In this document: positions 13,353-62,680 of the stretch, piece after piece
Position numbering within the stretch: position 1 is the stretch's first letter
How the letters are laid out: every line of letters begins with the position of its first letter
NCBI GenBank assembly: GCA_021735655.1
Contig: JAIPGM010000008.1
Coordinates: 5,922-69,921 of the forward strand
DNA from: Candidatus Omnitrophota bacterium
Lineage (GTDB): Bacteria; Omnitrophota; Gorgyraeia; Duberdicusellales; 4484-171
Direction: 5' to 3'
Length of the DNA: 64,000 bases
The notes under the pieces: generated by a model
The model's input: the letters and a program-made list of their open reading frames with translations, nothing else
Databases searched by the model: none
What the model was told of the DNA's origin: nothing
Translations under genes and position numbers: made by a program

Positions 13353-15248
13353 ATGTTATTATATTTAGGGAGACTCATGAAGAAGATATTTTTTTTAATA
13401 TTAATTGTTTTTATTGCTTTAGCTACTTATAGTAATTTGGTTTTTGCCCAAGATAGCCAAACTGCTAAAGAACTTGCCACTGAAGGACTGCTTAAAGAAA
13501 GAATCTCTGCCTTGTATGAAAAAGCAGTTTCTTTTTATAATCAAGATAAACTTAAAGAAGCTGACGAGTTATTGATTAATATTCTTAAGGTTGATCCTTT
13601 GCATGAGGGGGCAAGCCTGTATTTATATGAAAAGATTCCTGACCGTATAGCTAGCCGAAAAGCCCAAGAAAAAGATTTAAAAATACAAGAAGAACTTGCC
13701 CGTAAGAGACCGACAAAGGAAAACATTGATGCGTTATATAAAAAGACAGTTACCTTATATAAGAAGAATGATTTAAATAGAGCTAAGGAGTTTTTTGGTA
13801 AGGTTCTTGAGCTTGATCCAAATCATAAGGGGGCGAAACTTTATCTAGATAAAAAGATTCCCGATAGAATCGAAGCCGAAAAACAACAAGAAAAAGATCG
13901 TCTAAAGAATGCGAATAAAGAAAAAGTAGATTCTTTATATAAAAAAGCTAAAGTTTTTTATGATAATGGTCAACTAGATAGGGCTAGCGATATGTGCTAT
14001 CAAATATTTGAGCTTGATCCTGACCATAAAGGGGCAAAGGTTTATTTGCGCGAGAAGATCCCTAATAAAATTGAGCTGGCTAAGCAGATTGAGGAGCGCA
14101 AAGCCACAGAGTCAGAGCAAGAAGCTGAGACAGAAAGAGAAAAGGCTTTAAAGGAAAAGATTAAGTCCCTTTATAAGCAGGGAGTTTCCTCATACAATAA
14201 AGATGAGCTAGGTTCGGCCAAGTATTTTTTTGGCCAGGTCCTTGAGCTTGATCCTGATAATTCAAATGCCAAGAAGTATCTCCAAGAGAAGATTCCAGAT
14301 AAGATTGAATTATCGGCTCTTGAAGCAAAATATCGTTTAGAACTCCAAAAAGAGGAGGAAATTTCAGAAAGAGCTCGCCAAGAACAATTTGTTAAGGAAG
14401 AAGCTAGGATTGAGGAAACGACTAGAATTTATAAAGAGCAAATTGCTGAAGGTAAAGTCCAGACCATTAATGTCCAAGAGAGCGTAGAGGATATCCCAAT
14501 AGACATTCCAATTGGCGATGAAAAAGATTTAACTGAGATTGAAAATGAGGCTAGTCAGGAGCAGTTTATTAAACAGGAAGCGATTGTTGAGGAGAAAACT
14601 AAGATTTATCAAGAGCAAATTGCTAATAGCGAGGTTTCAGTTCAAGAGGTTCAAGAAGAAGAAAAAAAGCCTATTGAAAATAAACCAGTTGCAGTTAATA
14701 GTGCGATCGAAGAAGAAATACCTATTGATAAATATGCATCGGTTGACAGTAGCCAATATGAGTATCTTGTAAGCACCGGCGATAGCTTAGAGATATCTTT
14801 ATATGGTGAACCGGACATGAAACAGGTAACTAAAGTATCTGAGGAAGGGTTGATAACCTACCCTTTTTTGGGCTCAATTAAGGTGAAGGATCTTAACGCC
14901 AGAGAGATTGAGGAAAAGATTGCTGGTTTATTAGGCGAAGAATATTTTGTAGATCCACAGGTAACGGTTGTAATTAAGGTGCATGCTAAGTTTAATATTT
15001 TAGGAGAAGTGAGGCGACCGGGAAGTTATGAAATTAGCGGCCCAACGACCGTAATCGATGCTATCTCTGTAGCTGGAGGATTTACTGACATAGCCAATAA
15101 GAATGGTGTGAAAGTTGTTAGGAAGGATGGAGATCGAAACAAGGTTATTAAGGTTCCGGTACACCGTATTTTAAAAACCGGCGACAGCTCAAAGAATATC
15201 TACTTAAAGAAAGGGGATACGATCGTAGTCCCTGAATCTTTCTTCTAG
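13353..15248 (+). CDS. Polysaccharide export protein (Wza/Poly_export + SLBB) with N-terminal TPR-like repeat array
   Basis: C-terminal Poly_export/SLBB-like block (ITYPFLGSIKVKDLNAREIEEKIAGLL; SLBB GEVRRPGSYEI...TVIDAISVAGG); four ~58-aa repeats LYKK..ELDPDHKGAK.YL.EKIPD.IE N-terminally. Confidence 0.7.
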   Translation: MLLYLGRLMKKIFFLILIVFIALATYSNLVFAQDSQTAKELATEGLLKERISALYEKAVSFYNQDKLKEADELLINILKVDPLHEGASLYLYEKIPDRIASRKAQEKDLKIQEELARKRPTKENIDALYKKTVTLYKKNDLNRAKEFFGKVLELDPNHKGAKLYLDKKIPDRIEAEKQQEKDRLKNANKEKVDSLYKKAKVFYDNGQLDRASDMCYQIFELDPDHKGAKVYLREKIPNKIELAKQIEERKATESEQEAETEREKALKEKIKSLYKQGVSSYNKDELGSAKYFFGQVLELDPDNSNAKKYLQEKIPDKIELSALEAKYRLELQKEEEISERARQEQFVKEEARIEETTRIYKEQIAEGKVQTINVQESVEDIPIDIPIGDEKDLTEIENEASQEQFIKQEAIVEEKTKIYQEQIANSEVSVQEVQEEEKKPIENKPVAVNSAIEEEIPIDKYASVDSSQYEYLVSTGDSLEISLYGEPDMKQVTKVSEEGLITYPFLGSIKVKDLNAREIEEKIAGLLGEEYFVDPQVTVVIKVHAKFNILGEVRRPGSYEISGPTTVIDAISVAGGFTDIANKNGVKVVRKDGDRNKVIKVPVHRILKTGDSSKNIYLKKGDTIVVPESFF

Positions 15249-32891: not shown

Positions 32892-33028
32892 TAAGATAAA
32901 TGGTATATCCCTCGCGCCTAAATATTCGAAAAATTTCTACGATATTTTTCGAAGGCGCTTCGGGATCAATTCTAATGAGACTGTAATTTTTCTCAATCAA
33001 TGAGAAAAATTACATAGTCGAATTATCA

Positions 33029-34619: not shown

Positions 34620-36188
34620 TTAGTTTTTATTCATCCCGCTTATTAAAGTGGGATATTTTTTTCGGAGAGGTCGCATAGCCCGGTCGAGTGCGCGTGTTTG
34701 GAGTACACGTAGGCCCTTTGGGTCTCCAGGGTTCGAATCCCTGCCTCTCCGCCATTTTTGAGAGCGGGCAATTTTGGCAACTATACTGAACGGCTCGGAC
34801 CAATAAAATGAAAGGTTTTTGTCTTTCAAAGTATGGTTCGAGCCGTTTGTTTTTAAAAAATCCCTTTTTTGCGACAGGTTTCCTTGCCAAGCGACAGAAC
34901 CGGCTAAATTGCAAGAGGTAATGAAGTTTTTAGAGAGTTCGAGCCAGCCGCCGCTTTGTTTCTCTATCTCGCCAAGCCTTTCCTGTAAATCTTTCTTTTC
35001 ATTGAGCAATTTAGCCTTCTTATGCTGATATTCTTCCTGCGATATATCACGCTCAACATATAAATCAATAAGCCTTTCTATTTTGCCGTCAATTGAGCTA
35101 AGTTTATCTTGTAATTGGCGAGATAGAGAAAAAGAGGCTTTGCGATTAATCTCGGCTAATTCATCAAGGCGGTTAAAAATAACATCTTTACCATTATCAG
35201 GGATAAACACCTGCATTAAGGCTTTATTAACTTGCTCAAGCAAAGCCTCTTCTCGAAGAAACTTTTGCGAACAACGCCTGATTTTCTTGGTACAACGATA
35301 ATAAATATGGCCTTTTTGCATTTCAGCGGTAATTGAGCCACCGCACTCACTGCATTTAATAAAGCCTCGAAAGGCAAATTTAACTTGGTTACGCTGTTGC
35401 GGCCGAGTTTTTCGGGATAATACCTCTTGGCACCTATCAAAAAGTTTCTTCGAGATGAGCGGCGGATGGCTGCCTTCATACATTTCGCCTTTAAACCTGA
35501 TAACCCCATAGTAAAAAGGATTTTGCAACAGCCTTGCAAGTTTACTCTTATGGACAGGCTTGCCCTTTCTGCCGATTAAACCCCAGGTTTTAACCTCCTG
35601 CATAAGCTCATAAAGTGAAAAGTTACCCGTGGCGTAAACTTCAAAAATTTTCTTAATATATGGAGAACGTTCAGCATCAGGAATAATAACTCTGGTTTTA
35701 CGGTCATTAACATAACCTAAAGGAGCATAAATAGGCCATACGCCACGGCGTAGCTTTTCACGCATACCACGCCTAATATTCTCGGAAAGATTATCTATAT
35801 AATACTTAGATTGTCCAAAAGCGATAGAGAGCATAAACTTACCTTGAGCAGTGTTATCAAAGCGGTAAGTAGGAAAACGTAAGTCTTTTATAACCCCTAA
35901 ATCAACCAAATAGATAATCTTACCACCATCAAGAGAGTTTCGGGCAAGCCTGTCCGGATGCCATGCCAAAATACCATCGGCATTACCACTTTCTAACTGC
36001 TGCAAAACAAACTCGAAGATAGGCCGTCCGGGACACTTGGCTGATTTGGCTTCCGAAAATTCATCAACCACAAAGAGGGATTCTTTCTTGGCATATTCGC
36101 GCAACTCGTTTATTTGGGACTCAATACTAAGGACCTGCCTATCTTCGGCATCAGTAGATTTCCTGGCATATAAAAGATATTTTGGCAT
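34620..36188 (-). CDS. Large serine recombinase (integrase); annotated 3' end reads antisense through tRNA-Ser
   Basis: N-terminal YARKSTDAEDRQ..SIESQ with catalytic Ser; recombinase domain; zinc beta-ribbon CSECGG...YYRC; coiled coil. Last ~45 codons are antisense of the tRNA (GRDSNPG = T-loop antisense), so the true C-terminus is uncertain. Confidence 0.8.
   Translation of the reverse strand: MPKYLLYARKSTDAEDRQVLSIESQINELREYAKKESLFVVDEFSEAKSAKCPGRPIFEFVLQQLESGNADGILAWHPDRLARNSLDGGKIIYLVDLGVIKDLRFPTYRFDNTAQGKFMLSIAFGQSKYYIDNLSENIRRGMREKLRRGVWPIYAPLGYVNDRKTRVIIPDAERSPYIKKIFEVYATGNFSLYELMQEVKTWGLIGRKGKPVHKSKLARLLQNPFYYGVIRFKGEMYEGSHPPLISKKLFDRCQEVLSRKTRPQQRNQVKFAFRGFIKCSECGGSITAEMQKGHIYYRCTKKIRRCSQKFLREEALLEQVNKALMQVFIPDNGKDVIFNRLDELAEINRKASFSLSRQLQDKLSSIDGKIERLIDLYVERDISQEEYQHKKAKLLNEKKDLQERLGEIEKQSGGWLELSKNFITSCNLAGSVAWQGNLSQKRDFLKTNGSNHTLKDKNLSFYWSEPFSIVAKIARSQKWRRGRDSNPGDPKGLRVLQTRALDRAMRPLRKKYPTLISGMNKN
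34664..34754 (+). tRNA. tRNA-Ser (anticodon GGA), type II with long variable arm, CCA encoded
   Basis: Acceptor GGAGAGG/CCTCTCC; anticodon stem CGTGT/ACACG with loop TTGGAGT; variable arm TAGGCCCTTTGGGTCTCC; T-arm CAGGG-TTCGAAT-CCCTG; ends GCCA. Confidence 0.85.
34749..34780. repeat. Left copy of a perfect 32-bp inverted repeat bracketing the recombinase gene (ccgccatttttgagagcgggcaattttggcaa)
   Basis: Exact reverse complement occurs at 36323..36354; the left copy overlaps the last 6 nt of tRNA-Ser. Confidence 0.85.
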
Positions 36189-52828: not shown

Positions 52829-52924
52829 GGAGGGGTGGCCGAGCTCGGTTTAAGGCGGCGGTTTGCTAAACCGTTGTACAGGTGAAAACCCGTACCTGGG
52901 GTTCAAATCCCCACCCCTCCGCCA
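52829..52924 (+). tRNA. tRNA-Ser (anticodon GCU), type II
   Basis: Acceptor GGAGGGG/CCCCTCC; 3-bp D-stem; anticodon stem GCGGT/ACCGT with loop TTGCTAA; long variable arm gtac...gtac; T-arm TGGGG-TTCAAAT-CCCCA; GCCA end. Confidence 0.8.
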
Positions 52925-56224: not shown

Positions 56225-57952
56225 ATGGAGTATTTAGCTTTTGCTTTAAAATATCGGCCGCAAAACTTTGAACAAGTTATCGGCCAAGAGCACATTGTTG
56301 TTTCTTTGCGAAACGCAATCCTAAAAGATCGAGTTTCTCACGCCTATATTTTTAGCGGTCCCCGAGGAATCGGTAAAACTTCTCTAGCCCGAATTTTTGC
56401 AAAATCTTTAAACTGTGCCGAAGGCCCAACAGCTAAGCCTTGTGGAAAGTGCCCAAGTTGTTTAGCGATTACTAAGGGTAAGTCTTTAGATATCATCGAA
56501 ATAGATGGGGCCTCAAACCGAGGCATAGACGAGATAAGAACCTTAAGAGAGAATGTAAAGCTTTCTCCGGCCGGATCAAGATATAAGATTTATATTATCG
56601 ATGAAGTTCACATGCTTACCCAAGAGGCTTTTAATGCTCTTTTAAAGACCTTGGAGGAGCCGCCGCCACATGTAAAATTTATCTTTGCAACTACCCATCC
56701 ACATAAAATATTACCAACGATTCTTTCGCGTTGTCAAAAGTTCCAGTTTAACCTTATTGCTTTAGAGAATATTGTTGCTAAGTTAAGAATAATTGCTAAA
56801 AGCGAGAAGATCAAAATTGAGGATAGTCTTTTATATACGATTGGCCGGGCCGCTGCCGGAAGTATAAGAGATGCTGAGAGCTTGTTTGATCAGCTGGCAC
56901 CGGTAGTGCTTGAGAAAGGCTCGCTCAAAGATGTTTTTTCCTTTTTAGGAATAATTGATGAGGAAAGTTTAAATAAAGCACTTAAGGCACTTTTAGATAA
57001 AGATATTGAGAGTTGTTTAGAGTTTATCGATCGATTAGCTAAAGATGGGAAAGATTTAGGAATATTTTTAAATGCTTTCATTGAACATTTACGCAATTTA
57101 CTTTTAGCTAAGGTAAGTTCGAGGACTTTTCAGGATTTAAGTGATGTTTCTCCCCAGAGTAAGGATTTTATTATTGAGCTTGCAAAGACAATTACAACTT
57201 TTGAAGTTTTAAGGGCGATTGATCTACTTATTGAAGCAAAGGATATTTCAAAGCGTCTTAACACGGTGAGAATTCCTTTGGAGTTAGCCTTAATAAGGTA
57301 TTCGCATCAAGAAGAGTCAGAAGAGGTCCAGCCTCAAGCTCCTAAAAAAATCAATAAGCCTGATTTGCCTAAGAGCAATGAGCCTCCGAACTCGACGATA
57401 GAAGGCTTAGATAGTATAGATTTTGAGGATGACGATGAACCGGTAAAGAGTAACAGCCAGGATGACAAGAAAGAAGACATAATGGATATCGATCAAGACG
57501 ATGCCCCACAGGATAATACTTTATTGCAGCCAATGTTGACTAAATGGCAGCAGATGATTGCTTATATGCAGAAAAAAAGAGCAGCCATTGCTTCGCATCT
57601 TACTTTTGCTCAGCCGATATCTTCTAAGGGTCGTTGCGTAACAATTGCTTTTTCACCGGCTGACTATTTTCATAAAGAGATCGTTGAAAGCGCTAAGAAT
57701 GTAAAGTTTATCGAAGCGGCAATTGCACATTTTATTAGTCAATCTCCGGGGGTAAAATTTATTCTTCGAGATCTTCCAGATAGACCGAAGATTAAATCGG
57801 CTCCCGATTTAGCTGAAAGCGAAAATAGTAAACAAAACACTGATGGTAGCGAAAAAGCGAAACCTTCCCAAGCAGTTTCCGGGGATGATGATGCTTTTTT
57901 AAACAATCTTTTAGATACTTTTGACGGAAAATTTCACAGTGAGGATCAATGA
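56225..57952 (+). CDS. dnaX: DNA polymerase III subunit gamma/tau
   Basis: Walker A GPRGIGKTS; zinc module CAEGPTAKPCGKCPSC; SRC sensor motif TILSRCQKF. Confidence 0.9.
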   Translation: MEYLAFALKYRPQNFEQVIGQEHIVVSLRNAILKDRVSHAYIFSGPRGIGKTSLARIFAKSLNCAEGPTAKPCGKCPSCLAITKGKSLDIIEIDGASNRGIDEIRTLRENVKLSPAGSRYKIYIIDEVHMLTQEAFNALLKTLEEPPPHVKFIFATTHPHKILPTILSRCQKFQFNLIALENIVAKLRIIAKSEKIKIEDSLLYTIGRAAAGSIRDAESLFDQLAPVVLEKGSLKDVFSFLGIIDEESLNKALKALLDKDIESCLEFIDRLAKDGKDLGIFLNAFIEHLRNLLLAKVSSRTFQDLSDVSPQSKDFIIELAKTITTFEVLRAIDLLIEAKDISKRLNTVRIPLELALIRYSHQEESEEVQPQAPKKINKPDLPKSNEPPNSTIEGLDSIDFEDDDEPVKSNSQDDKKEDIMDIDQDDAPQDNTLLQPMLTKWQQMIAYMQKKRAAIASHLTFAQPISSKGRCVTIAFSPADYFHKEIVESAKNVKFIEAAIAHFISQSPGVKFILRDLPDRPKIKSAPDLAESENSKQNTDGSEKAKPSQAVSGDDDAFLNNLLDTFDGKFHSEDQ

Positions 57953-60371: not shown

Positions 60372-60615
60372 TAAAATATTATAGCATATTTCCCGAGTTT
60401 TACATCTCTGAATGAGCGTAAGCAGTTATTGACGCTTTTAGCGAAATAGGTTATAATTTATCCTCAAAAGAGAGTTCTTTAAAATCAGGCAATATCGGCG
60501 CACCTAAATATTTGTAAAATTTCTAAGAAAATTTTACAAAAGTGTGCCGATATAAGTAAATCTAAAGTTTTTATCATACACTTACTGTATTTCTAAAAAC
60601 CTAAGATTTACTAAT

Positions 60616-61018
60616 TCCCCGGTAGCTCAGTTGGTAGAGCGCATGGCTGTCAATGAGGCCGCAACTTTTAGAGCCGAAGGCGAATAAAAGCTGCATGGCC
60701 GAATTGGTTCCGCCGAGTTATGGTGAATTTCTTTCATAAATTCACCATATATTTAGCGAGGCGGAACTAAGTATGGCAGCTCTCATGAGAAATCATGAGA
60801 TGATAAGCGGGCTAATTCAGGGAACCCTAAGTCTCGTAAGAGATATGGCAATCCTGAGCTAAATGTGCAAGATGAAAATCTTGCGCTAAATGTGCAGAGA
60901 CTATATACCCGCCTCCTAAAGCCAAAAGCCATGGAGATGAGATAGTCCAGTCCTTAAGGAAACTTAAGGGGTAACTGTAACCATGATGTCCGAGGTTCGA
61001 GCCCTCGCCGGGGAGCCA
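60616..61018 (+). tRNA. tRNA-Asn (anticodon GUU) interrupted by a 327-nt group I intron in the anticodon loop
   Basis: Exon 1 60616..60650 (TCCCCGGTAGCTCAGTTGGTAGAGCGCATGGCTGT); exon 2 60978..61018 (TAACCATGATGTCCGAGGTTCGAGCCCTCGCCGGGGAGCCA). Joined sequence closely matches E. coli tRNA-Asn as recalled. Intron has P/Q/R/S-like blocks (aattcagggaaccctaag; aatcctgagctaaatg; cagagactata; gagatagtccag) and terminal G. Confidence 0.75.
60651..60977 (+). ncRNA. Group I intron (self-splicing ribozyme candidate) within tRNA-Asn
   Basis: Conserved R (cAGAGACUAuA) and S (GAUAGUCCag) elements able to form P7; 5' splice site after U; 3' terminal G; P9-like hairpin ccttaagg-aaac-ttaagg; no ORF inside. 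Confidence 0.7.
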
Positions 61019-62680
61019 GTTAGACGTCTGACAGCGGATTTCTTCGCTGTCGGATTCGCATAGATCAAATAGCCCTGTGTCGGGTTGACGCCCATACAGG
61101 GCTATTTGTATTTTGGTGGGGCTTAAAACGGCTTTGTGCAGGACGAGCCTTACCATATCCTTCTGCCGATAAGGTTTTATCTTATCGAAAAGGTCGGAGA
61201 ATCGGCTCAAAGCCAATGTTACAAGCTCCTGACTTATCGATTCCCGCTCGATTTCCTTGATCATGGCCTCAAGCGAGGCTATGCCGGTTTCTATCTCTTT
61301 CCGGCGCTGGCCAAGCTCTGCAAGTTTCTCTTTCAGGAATATACTGCTGTCATCCGTGGCCATGGCAGTCCATTTATTCATTATTCCATCGGCAAAGGCC
61401 TTGACCTCGGCCAGTTCTTTTTGAAGGTGCGTTCTCCGGTATTTAAGCTGTGGTAGTTCCTTCATGAGCTTTTCATTGGTATGTTCTATCAGTTTTTGCA
61501 TAAGGCCGGAATCGGATGAGAGATATTTTATTCTCTCGATTATGATACGCTCTATCTCATCGGCCGGGAGTTTAAATCTGCAGGCTTTATCTTTGCATAC
61601 ATAGAAAAAGTATTTATTGCCACGTCTGCCTGTTCCGCAGGTTCCTTCCATCTGACCACCGCATTTACCGCACCACAAAAGCCCGCCATTAAGGATATAA
61701 GCGTGTTTTATTGTCTTTGTGCCGTTGTGTTTCGTTTTGGTGTTTTGTTTGATGAGCTTCTGGACCTTGTAGAAGGTCTCCTCATCGATTAAAGGCTCCC
61801 AGACCGCCTTGACGGTCCTGTAACGCTCTTTTTCCTGTAGCTTAGACTGATCCTGCAACCTTTTCTTTTTATTGATCTCTTTAAGCCCGATATAAGCGCA
61901 ATTGACGAGTAGTTGTTTTATAGATGATCTGCCGAATTTCTCGGGAGTGCGGAATTTGCCTCTGCGAGAGGTGTACCCTTTGGTGCGATAGCCATTATCA
62001 TTAAGGGCCCGGGCAGTTCCCATAAGCGATCCGCACTCAAGGTATTTCTTAAAGGCAAACCGCACGAGGGCCTTTTCTTTTTCGTTTACTATTGGATAAC
62101 CTTTGCGTTTTGGATCGAGGTCATATCCCAGCAAATGCCCGCCGTTCCAGAGTCCACGCTCGGCCCGGGCAAGACACGCTTCTTTATTGCGCTCGGAGGT
62201 TTGTGTCCGCTCGAATTCTGCGAGAGCCATCATTATTGTTATGAATAACTTGCCTTGAGAGGACGTGGTATCGTAGTTCTGTTTTAAGCATACGAATTCG
62301 ACATCGTATTTGGTGAGGATCTCGAAGAAGTTCAAGAAATCCCTGACTGAGCGACTTATCCGATCAAGTGCGGTACATATAACGGTATTTACCTTGCCTG
62401 ACTTGATATCTTCAAGAAGCTGGGTGAATTCGATGCTCCGGAAGGAATCTTTGCCAGATACGCCTTTCAGGATATACCGGCCGGTTTCGACCCATCGTTC
62501 CCCGCAGGCAGTGGTCTTATATTCGATATGGGCCTGCAGGCGCTGTAGCTGATTGGTAAGCGAGCCCTCGGGATTTCGGGCCTGCTTGTCGGTGCTTACC
62601 CTTATCACAAATCCGCAATTCTTTATTATCTTATCTTCCATAACAACACAACCCCTATAACAATACTTGGCACAAGTCAA
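60827..62680 (-). CDS. Large serine recombinase (integrase); 3' end reads antisense through tRNA-Asn exon 2 and intron
   Basis: N-terminal FVIRVSTDKQ with catalytic Ser; zinc ribbon CGKCGG...YVCKDKAC; coiled coil. Last ~90 codons overlap the att-like IR and tRNA, so the true C-terminus is probably shorter. Confidence 0.8.
   Translation of the reverse strand: MTCAKYCYRGCVVMEDKIIKNCGFVIRVSTDKQARNPEGSLTNQLQRLQAHIEYKTTACGERWVETGRYILKGVSGKDSFRSIEFTQLLEDIKSGKVNTVICTALDRISRSVRDFLNFFEILTKYDVEFVCLKQNYDTTSSQGKLFITIMMALAEFERTQTSERNKEACLARAERGLWNGGHLLGYDLDPKRKGYPIVNEKEKALVRFAFKKYLECGSLMGTARALNDNGYRTKGYTSRRGKFRTPEKFGRSSIKQLLVNCAYIGLKEINKKKRLQDQSKLQEKERYRTVKAVWEPLIDEETFYKVQKLIKQNTKTKHNGTKTIKHAYILNGGLLWCGKCGGQMEGTCGTGRRGNKYFFYVCKDKACRFKLPADEIERIIIERIKYLSSDSGLMQKLIEHTNEKLMKELPQLKYRRTHLQKELAEVKAFADGIMNKWTAMATDDSSIFLKEKLAELGQRRKEIETGIASLEAMIKEIERESISQELVTLALSRFSDLFDKIKPYRQKDMVRLVLHKAVLSPTKIQIALYGRQPDTGLFDLCESDSEEIRCQTSNWLPGEGSNLGHHGYSYPLSFLKDWTISSPWLLALGGGYIVSAHLAQDFHLAHLAQDCHISYET
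61061..61101. repeat. 12-bp perfect inverted repeat with 17-bp spacer (candidate recombinase att core)
   Basis: aaatagccctgt-N17-acagggctattt, 43 bp downstream of the tRNA-Asn 3' end. Confidence 0.5.

Follow-up and report, generated by a model that had tools for sequence, protein, structure and literature searches.

The tRNA-Asn(GUU) gene of a Candidatus Omnitrophota bacterium, found at positions 60616-61018 on the plus strand of a 64,000-nt stretch of contig JAIPGM010000008.1 (assembly GCA_021735655.1; the whole stretch is called the window), carries a 327-nt group I intron in its anticodon loop, between nucleotides 35 and 36. This intron lacks a homing endonuclease. It is very probably functional and removed by the standard two-step splicing pathway, with a chemistry expected from homologous introns, and the host gene probably serves as the tRNA-Asn(GUU) gene of the cell. 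An earlier note, made from the letters of the DNA alone, had proposed the interrupted gene, and the proposal is borne out by a full-length match to the Rfam group I intron model, by the cloverleaf that ARAGORN draws from the joined exons, and by an intact gene in the closest relative. A structured repeat that is dispersed in Omnitrophota DNA and apparently undescribed has a copy in the loop of the first intron helix (P1 loop, L1).

Exon 1 (60616-60650, 35 nt) comprises nucleotides 1-35, reads UCCCCGG UA GCUC AGUUGGUA GAGC G CAUGG CU GU, and ends with ...GGCUGU, which supplies G34 and U35. The intron occupies 60651-60977, starts with CAAUGAG and ends with ...AACUG, as determined from the Rfam match, covariation, and the intronless allele. 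Exon 2 (60978-61018, 41 nt) starts with UAACC and extends from U36 to A76 as UAA CCAUG AUGUC CGAGG UUCGAGC CCUCG CCGGGGA G CCA, with the CCA end encoded. Ligation of 60650 to 60978 gives 76 nt that form a perfect tRNA-Asn(GUU) cloverleaf in ARAGORN. The closest relative, locus L003 (RecR 84% identical), carries an uninterrupted tRNA-Asn gene whose 72 nt are exactly the predicted ligated exons, its positions 13739-13773 being the same as exon 1 and 13774-13810 the same as exon 2; this gene scores 69.2 bits with the Rfam tRNA model and is called tRNA-Asn(GUU) by ARAGORN. The intron follows an exon U (U60650) and ends in G (G60977), as the earlier note had stated, and 35/36 is the only register that places U before the intron and G at its end. 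The first intron base is unlike the first base of exon 2, and the last base of exon 1 is unlike the last intron base; therefore, the register is fixed, and no other 327-nt deletion yields the intact sequence of L003. Deletion between 35 and 36 is the only one that restores the sequence of 22 intact orthologues. The junction at U35/U36 is set by this register, by the minimum free energy (MFE) fold of the precursor, and by the intact L003 gene. The identical sequence also occurs in an independent Logan assembly (L001), and the arrangement is thus no artefact of the assembly of one data set; the identical contig is present in SRR12088349.

Rfam RF00028 (Intron_gpI) matches 60725-60969 on the plus strand over the full model with 79.2 bits (E = 1.9e-18), against a gathering score of 50 bits, and no other Rfam family exceeded its threshold in the region 60560-61080, which was scanned at E <= 10. 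The four core blocks listed in the earlier note are all present, namely aattcagggaaccc at 60814-60827, aatcctgagctaaatg at 60850-60865, cagagactata at 60895-60905, and gagatagtccag at 60939-60950. When the entire 403-nt precursor is folded by MFE without constraints, the P1 5' strand GCUGU/CA (60646-60652), with the 5' splice site after U60650, pairs with 60780-60774 of the internal guide U-G-GCAGC-U (60774-60781), which is also the 3' strand of the first Rfam helix. G60776 pairs with U35, so that a U60650·G60776 wobble marks the 5' splice site. The same fold recovers P2, P4-P6, P7, P8, and P9. A guide was sought near the 5' splice site, but no sequence there fits, and the sole match is GCAGC at 60776-60780. 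The guide (60776-60781) actually lies 125 nt downstream, because the P1 loop holds a two-hairpin repeat module that the earlier note had not recognised.

The helices were examined in an alignment of ten homologous introns that begins at the guide sequence and ends at the terminal G. The helices of the window intron all lie on the plus strand. The P2 hairpin CUCAUGA-GAAA-UCAUGAG (60782-60799) covaries at 6 of its 6 pairs, and the P3 5' strand GCGGG (60807-60811) pairs with CCCGC at 60908-60912, with 100% of alignment cells paired and double changes at two of five pairs. P4-P5-P5a (CAGGGA...UCCUG, 60818-60858) has an invariant P4 and a paired P5, in which the 11-nt tetraloop-receptor motif CCUAAG...UAUGG can be read and probably serves in docking. 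The P6 hairpin GCAAGAU-GAAA-AUCUUGC (60867-60884) appears in both the MFE fold and the Rfam alignment. The pseudoknot helix P7, the presumed guanosine-binding helix, is formed by GACUAU (60898-60903) and AUAGUC (60942-60947); it is mostly invariant, with 93% of cells paired and one A-U to U-A double change. P8 (CUCC...GGAG, 60913-60936) includes a receptor-like CCUAAAG...CAUGG and shows double changes at five of seven pairs, and the P9 hairpin CCUUAAG-GAAA-CUUAAGG (60952-60969) is paired in 100% of cells with double changes at five of six pairs. The 3' splice site follows the terminal guanosine of the intron (omega-G, 60977), which is G in all 20 interrupted genes. The spacer between P7 and the P3 3' strand is only UAUA, and the P7.1/P7.2 insert, a hallmark of IA introns, is absent.

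RNAalifold recovered P2, P3, P4, P5, P8, and P9 from the ten introns, with compensatory double changes at 19 of 37 pairs. The hand-named structure, to which the P3/P7 pseudoknot was added, is paired in 96.1% of cells and has double changes at 20 of 41 pairs. Its covariation score is 0.487 compared with 0.178 in shuffled alignments, and none of 500 shuffles reached the observed values. When the pairing partners were slid by 1-3 columns as a control, just 31-50% of cells were paired. The guide GCAGC is invariant in all 20 family members, and the exon side of P1 is invariant too, which makes covariation impossible there.

Splicing would proceed along the following route. Transcription would start from a sigma-70-type promoter at 60429-60457 on the plus strand (TTGACG, 17 nt, TATAAT; 11 of 12 consensus matches), a putative function read from its sequence. 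The end of exon 1 (G60646-U60650) is predicted to pair with G60776-C60780 of the guide to form P1, in which U35·G60776 would define the 5' splice site, and the intervening 125 nt are modelled as two local hairpins, so that P1 closes a three-way junction. The core from P3 to P9 would fold into a structure that includes the P3/P7 pseudoknot, and the P2 and P9 hairpins would probably dock through their GAAA loops in the receptors of P8 and P5, as in introns of the Azoarcus type. We take the combination of GAAA-capped P2 and P9 with receptors in P8 and P5 to be an Azoarcus-type arrangement, with the tertiary contacts presumed. By analogy with known group I introns, free guanosine bound in P7 would attack after U60650, G60977 would then replace it, and the 3' OH of U35 would attack after G60977. 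Ligation of U35 to U36 would restore the anticodon GUU.

Relatives were gathered through RecR, which is encoded 2 kb upstream of the tRNA gene and reaches 84% identity, from species-representative loci (labelled L003 and so on) of Omnitrophota metagenome-assembled genomes (MAGs); some RecR-matched MAGs are labelled 'Planctomycetia' in automated records. A comparison of tRNA-Asn loci in related genomes, which the earlier note had suggested as a check, gave a tRNA-Asn gene downstream of recR in 41 species loci, 19 interrupted (about 46%) and 22 intact. The introns at the 19 loci measure 221-704 nt, always lie at 35/36, and always end in G, and all 20 interrupted genes share the identical site, the U before the intron (U-1), omega-G, and the GCAGC guide. 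The 22 uninterrupted orthologues read CUGUUAA, that is, Asn GUU. At RecR identities of 84, 81, 79, 78, 76, and 74%, the gene is intact, intron-bearing, intact, intact, intron-bearing, and intron-bearing, respectively. Intron presence is thus unrelated to RecR identity, which implies repeated gain or loss.

The 20 introns differ in L1. In six, the guide follows the splice site after only 5-10 nt, and one has a 61-nt structured insert. In seven relatives (L011, L019, L024, L058, L066, L069, and L071), L1 contains a ribosome-binding site and an open reading frame (ORF) of 90-158 codons with CxxC...EFHH...CANCH motifs; the ORF of L058 is apparently truncated, and the 3' ends of these ORFs overlap the guide sequence and P2. 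The Pfam HNH model gives them 16.7-18.6 bits, below its cut-off of 21.4, and NCBIfam has no match for them; what supports the HNH assignment is therefore the set of CxxC...HH...CxxCH motifs together with the similarity to a published, homologous intron endonuclease. The remaining six introns, including that of the window, have a 93-125-nt insert that starts with CAAUGAG. The L1 HNH endonuclease of the relatives and the patchy presence of the intron place it in a mobile lineage. An insert of about 45 nt of the P7.1/P7.2 type is found between P7 and the P3 3' strand in L026 (grouped with L027), L035, L041, L011, and L019, and it is absent from the window intron and from L028, L029, L014, L010, L017, L024, L065, L066, and L069, which are IC3-like. 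One insertion site therefore holds members both with and without P7.1/P7.2, and L1 is a position of interchangeable cargo.

The 125 nt that part the splice site from the guide in the window intron make up its first 38% and fold into two long hairpins. Domain A (60651-60706, plus strand) is a CAAU-GA-GGCC...GGCC-GA-AUUG hairpin with the tip GCC-GAA-GGC, and domain B (60706-60768, plus strand) is a hairpin of the form GGUUCCGCC-GAG...(11-bp stem)...AUAUUUAG-CGAG-GCGGAACU. Covariance models of the two domains, R1 for A and R2 for B, score them at 80.5 and 90.1 bits, respectively, and compensatory changes occur among copies at 10 of 22 pairs in domain A and 13 of 25 in domain B. In 1.08 Mb of Omnitrophota DNA, the models detect over 20 additional copies, mostly intergenic, in both orientations and in mosaic combinations. 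CAAUGAG...CGAAUUG in domain A and AUAUUUAG-CGAG in domain B are the conserved internal motifs of the family. A search of the module against Rfam (60560-61080, E <= 10) gave no family, just snoRNA and miRNA matches at chance level.

Within the window, a second copy at 32900-33028 fills the spacer between two protein genes, with B inverted relative to A, and an inverted domain-B-type hairpin lies in the tRNA-Asn leader at 60492-60553 on the minus strand (R2 34.2 bits, E = 6.7e-07). Other copies occur at L003 13465-13694, L031 2276-2400 and 10530-10644, L029 6200-6295, L041 825-938, and L016 761-821. At L018 9852-10000, a full module of about 125 nt lies exactly between the stop codon of dnaX and the start codon of recR, two genes that overlap by 4 nt in the window (57949-57952). 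L003 has three copies 5' of its intact tRNA-Asn, one of them fused to a duplicated 16-nt fragment of the tRNA 5' end. A pattern scan of metagenomes gave 18 matches, of which 6 are true copies and 12 are chance matches in coding DNA; five of the six true copies are beside tRNA genes (Asn 2, Met 2, Pro 1). The usual order in the aligned flanks is promoter, module, GTTCTTTTAAAAT motif, and tRNA, and the flanks show no consistent target-site duplication; neither a terminal inverted repeat nor an associated transposase was established, no search aimed at the latter having been made. The copy in L016 was considered as a separate small-RNA gene driven by a promoter of its own, and this idea was rejected because the same promoter precedes the tRNA-Asn of the window; the hexamers TTGACG and TATAAT are found 5' of tRNA-Asn in both L016 and L003. 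Since TTGACG-17-TATAAT precedes the tRNA-Asn gene of the window, such copies sit in the tRNA leader and are not separate genes.

Several leader copies are preceded by a duplicated tRNA 5' fragment of 12-25 nt, in the order fragment, module, full tRNA. The positions concerned are L003 13639-13654 and 13737-13752, L086 ~88-100, L096 ~581-595 on the minus strand, and L090 ~30-73 and ~200-225; they derive from tRNA-Asn in three loci and tRNA-Met in one. They may stem from an old tandem duplication at the CAAU microhomology or be remnants of site-specific integration. A further module copy at L088 143-202 on the minus strand follows ...GGGCCGACUGU, as if it were intron-borne behind a G34-U35 anticodon, in a contig of 52% GC. 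Neither Rfam nor ARAGORN reports a tRNA or intron in L088, whose contig ends about 140 nt downstream.

A tRNA-Asn host was called unusual in the earlier note, and this view is out of date. Williams (2020) widened the four classical types of bacterial tRNA intron to 21, including Asn.4Ug (10.1101/2020.01.27.920355). Nakagawa et al. (2026) reported 15 tRNA-Asn 35/36 introns in Patescibacteria with precise self-splicing in vitro, which is described for both Asn and Asp introns of that phylum (PMC13011429). This survey of 4,934 complete genomes gives 28 introns at 35/36, of which 19 are from Patescibacteria, three each from Cyanobacteriota and Nitrospirota, and one each from Bacillota_A, Bipolaricaulota, and Pseudomonadota; most were assigned to subgroup IA1. 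Endonuclease-bearing IA introns at 35/36 are stated there to have been seen in Patescibacteria alone, with the remark that draft genomes might add more (PMC13011429). Among the table entries covered here, Omnitrophota appears with an fMet 33/34 intron only and with none at 35/36, although an earlier listing of Asn introns from this phylum is possible. A full-text search of the literature for Omnitrophota together with group I introns gave nothing relevant. The intron is therefore a new member of a published class, and the tRNA-Asn host is not novel.

The window intron shares with this class the host tRNA, the insertion point, and U-1/omega-G. With the Asn introns of Nitrospirota and Patescibacteria it has in common the guide u/gGCAGCu followed by P2 with a GAAA loop, and with published Asn introns the core strings AAUUCAGGGAA, AAUCCUGAGC, GUGCAGAGACUA, and GAGAUAGUCC (Table S5, PMC13011429). 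The L1 ORF of L066 is 54% identical (E = 8e-48) to the translated ORF of a Patescibacteria tRNA-Asn intron in Table S5, and the Patescibacteria endonuclease ORF likewise overlaps the guide and P2, as in the Omnitrophota relatives. The window copy differs in its host, which belongs to a phylum unlisted for 35/36 in the complete-genome survey. It also lacks P7.1/P7.2, which the Nitrospirota copies (classed as IA1) and some Omnitrophota relatives have, and its L1 holds a dispersed-repeat module in place of an endonuclease gene or a short loop.

The window intron also resembles the IC3 introns of Azoarcus tRNA-Ile and cyanobacterial tRNA-Leu(UAA), a likeness read from sequence motifs and core identity. 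It shares their compact core, the GAAA-capped P2 and P9, the receptor CCUAAG...UAUGG in P5 with a related one in P8, and the lack of P2.1, P5abc, and P7.1/7.2. The IC3 introns differ in lying in another tRNA, at anticodon-loop position 34/35 or 36/37 compared with 35/36 here, and in having a short L1. Repeats also expand P6b of the Nostoc tRNA-Leu intron (PMC4476775), which is a parallel case of a bacterial tRNA group I intron that absorbs repeats in a peripheral loop, so that the length varies and the core is untouched; the Nostoc insert is in P6b, whereas that of the window lies in L1 and separates the splice site from the guide. As a dispersed element, the module is similar to repetitive extragenic palindromes and bacterial interspersed mosaic elements (REP/BIME) or miniature inverted-repeat transposable elements (MITEs) in being a short hairpin-forming unit that occurs at many intergenic places, in either orientation and in mosaic arrangements. 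It is unlike them in its 55-65-nt units, conserved internal motifs, and preference for tRNA leaders.

Several observations count against a functional intron of the published tRNA-Asn lineage. Splicing of the window intron is deduced from homologues. P10 was sought in the intron and no convincing pairing emerged, only a 4-nt AUGG/CCAU candidate without covariation in relatives. The 125-nt insert parts the 5' splice site from the guide and could slow or impair P1, and a comparable L1 insert is present in only five other family members. The 64-kb window holds no second, uninterrupted tRNA-Asn gene, although a copy elsewhere in the genome is possible. In addition, the core is about equally like the cyanobacterial tRNA-Leu IC3 intron (58% identity, nhmmer E = 1.8e-10) and the Nitrospirota Asn introns (60%, in a range of 55-60%); core similarity cannot part the lineages, so common descent with the published Asn introns rests mainly on the site, the guide, and the endonuclease of relatives. 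Some of these points would fit a decaying pseudogene that has lost splicing, for instance through the insertion in P1, while a second intact tRNA-Asn elsewhere serves the cell. The foreign repeat in L1, the lack of a homing endonuclease in the window copy, and a view limited to the window instead of the whole genome lend themselves to this explanation. It is nevertheless very unlikely, since the core retains every helix and scores 79 bits on Rfam, the guide sequence is preserved along with U-1 and omega-G, P1 still forms in the MFE fold, and the exons are 100% identical to the functional gene of a relative. Five other species combine a module-bearing L1 with intact cores, and Omnitrophota relatives have a single tRNA-Asn at the conserved recR-linked locus. 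A third reading moves the splice sites two nucleotides upstream to 33/34, with tRNA-Thr(UGU) as the product, because ARAGORN with the -i option reports the unspliced sequence as tRNA-Thr(tgt) with an intron (34,327). Splicing at 33/34 would leave C and not G as the last intron base, P1 has its U·G wobble at U35, and the 22 uninterrupted orthologues read Asn GUU; U1-A72 and G73 presumably fit tRNA-Asn as well. The tRNA-Thr(UGU) call was rejected on the basis of omega-G and the intact orthologues, and its chance of being correct is negligible. The identical Thr(UGU) 33/34 miscall by ARAGORN is documented for the published tRNA-Asn 35/36 class (PMC13011429).

What the L1 module represents is a separate matter, as the intron would be real in either case. 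The module is most likely a tolerated passenger in the place where relatives carry the endonuclease gene. It is possible, though rather doubtful, that it is instead a functional RNA domain of Omnitrophota tRNA precursors, such as a protein-binding or a processing/antitermination element, which would be carried in the 5' leader or in the intron and would modulate folding, splicing, or the fate of the precursor. This would agree with the compensatory changes that keep both hairpins paired and with the location of most copies in transcribed non-coding DNA beside tRNA genes (Asn, Met, Pro, and Ser/Leu-type), typically in the interval from the promoter to the boxA-like motif. An A-type copy is absent from the leader of the window tRNA and present in its intron, and L016 and L003, whose genes are intronless, carry copies in the leader. 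Tandem G·A motifs are a feature of each hairpin and reappear in further peripheral extensions within the family. Such a role is made less likely by the many tRNA-Asn loci without a detectable copy, and by copies that take either orientation and occupy unrelated spacers (dnaX-recR in L018 and 32900-33028 in the window), a pattern typical of REP/MITE-like repeats. Moreover, L028 and L029 have nearly identical cores and only one of them has the module, which shows a recent gain or loss in L1 and that the ribozyme can dispense with the module. The tentative alternative thus describes an undescribed two-hairpin RNA family of tRNA transcripts, perhaps functional, that moved into the P1 loop of the tRNA-Asn ribozyme in several lineages. 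If the module were functional and not selfish DNA, the intron would be an alternative carrier of a regulatory domain of the tRNA precursor, and the anticodon loop of tRNA-Asn would be a meeting point of an endonuclease-driven intron, a repeat module, and a serine-recombinase island.

The earlier note had found no ORF in the intron, which holds for the sense strand and fails for the minus strand. A large serine recombinase ORF (60827-62680, minus strand; Pfam Resolvase 6.7e-31, Recombinase 2.2e-20, Zn_ribbon_recom 7e-07) enters the tRNA gene at the CCA and crosses exon 2 and 151 nt of the intron in antisense. Within the ORF, the recombinase gene is placed at 60827-62641. The last 13 normal recombinase codons are antisense to exon 2, and 60827-60979 is a 50-codon extension made by the intron. 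Where the tRNA is intact, a TAA that is complementary to U35-U36-A37 ends the recombinase. With the intron, this TAA becomes TAC and there is read-through, of 50 codons in the window and of 17, 28, and 2 elsewhere. The overlap of the ORF with the intron is therefore a by-product of the lost stop codon. Recombinase homologues occur in the same place and orientation beside tRNA-Asn in at least 10 other loci, including L053, L018, L058, L041, and L066. The recombinase stretch has 45-49% GC, compared with 37% for the window, and this raised value suggests an integrated element. A displaced tRNA-Asn fragment that would mark the far end of the element was not found in the available flanks of ten loci, and the integration site is accordingly not delimited.

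Measured against the published work, the additions are the repeat module in L1, a phylum unlisted at 35/36, and the destroyed antisense stop codon of the recombinase. The occurrence in Omnitrophota, the frequency of about 46%, and the endonuclease-bearing copies are incremental. With them, the lineage of tRNA-Asn introns at 35/36 reaches another phylum of small cells and small genomes, and this includes copies that bear an endonuclease and are therefore probably mobile. Current understanding is not overturned; the leads for separate work are the repeat module and the overlap of recombinase and intron. The practical consequence concerns annotation. Standard tools miss an essential tRNA gene, as the default ARAGORN scan of the window reports no tRNA at 60616-61018 and calls tRNA-Thr when introns are allowed. 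Because the interrupted gene is missed in this way, about half of the sampled Omnitrophota species would seem to lack tRNA-Asn.

The tRNA-Asn leader also contains a boxA-like motif, GTTCTTTAAAAT, at 60474-60485 on the plus strand. It matches the rrn boxA of Escherichia coli, ugcucuuuaacaa (PMC2724277), at 9 of 12 positions, which is a likeness only to the antitermination element known from rrn and nut leaders. The related GTTCTTTTAAAAT-type motif, GTTCTTT(T)AAAAT, lies between the promoter or leader repeats and the tRNA genes and is kept in L016, L003, L086, and L096. Two further tRNAs are called in the window. A tRNA-Ser(GGA) at 34664-34754 is reported by ARAGORN and not by the Rfam tRNA model at its gathering threshold, and a tRNA-Ser(GCU) at 52829-52924 is detected by both.

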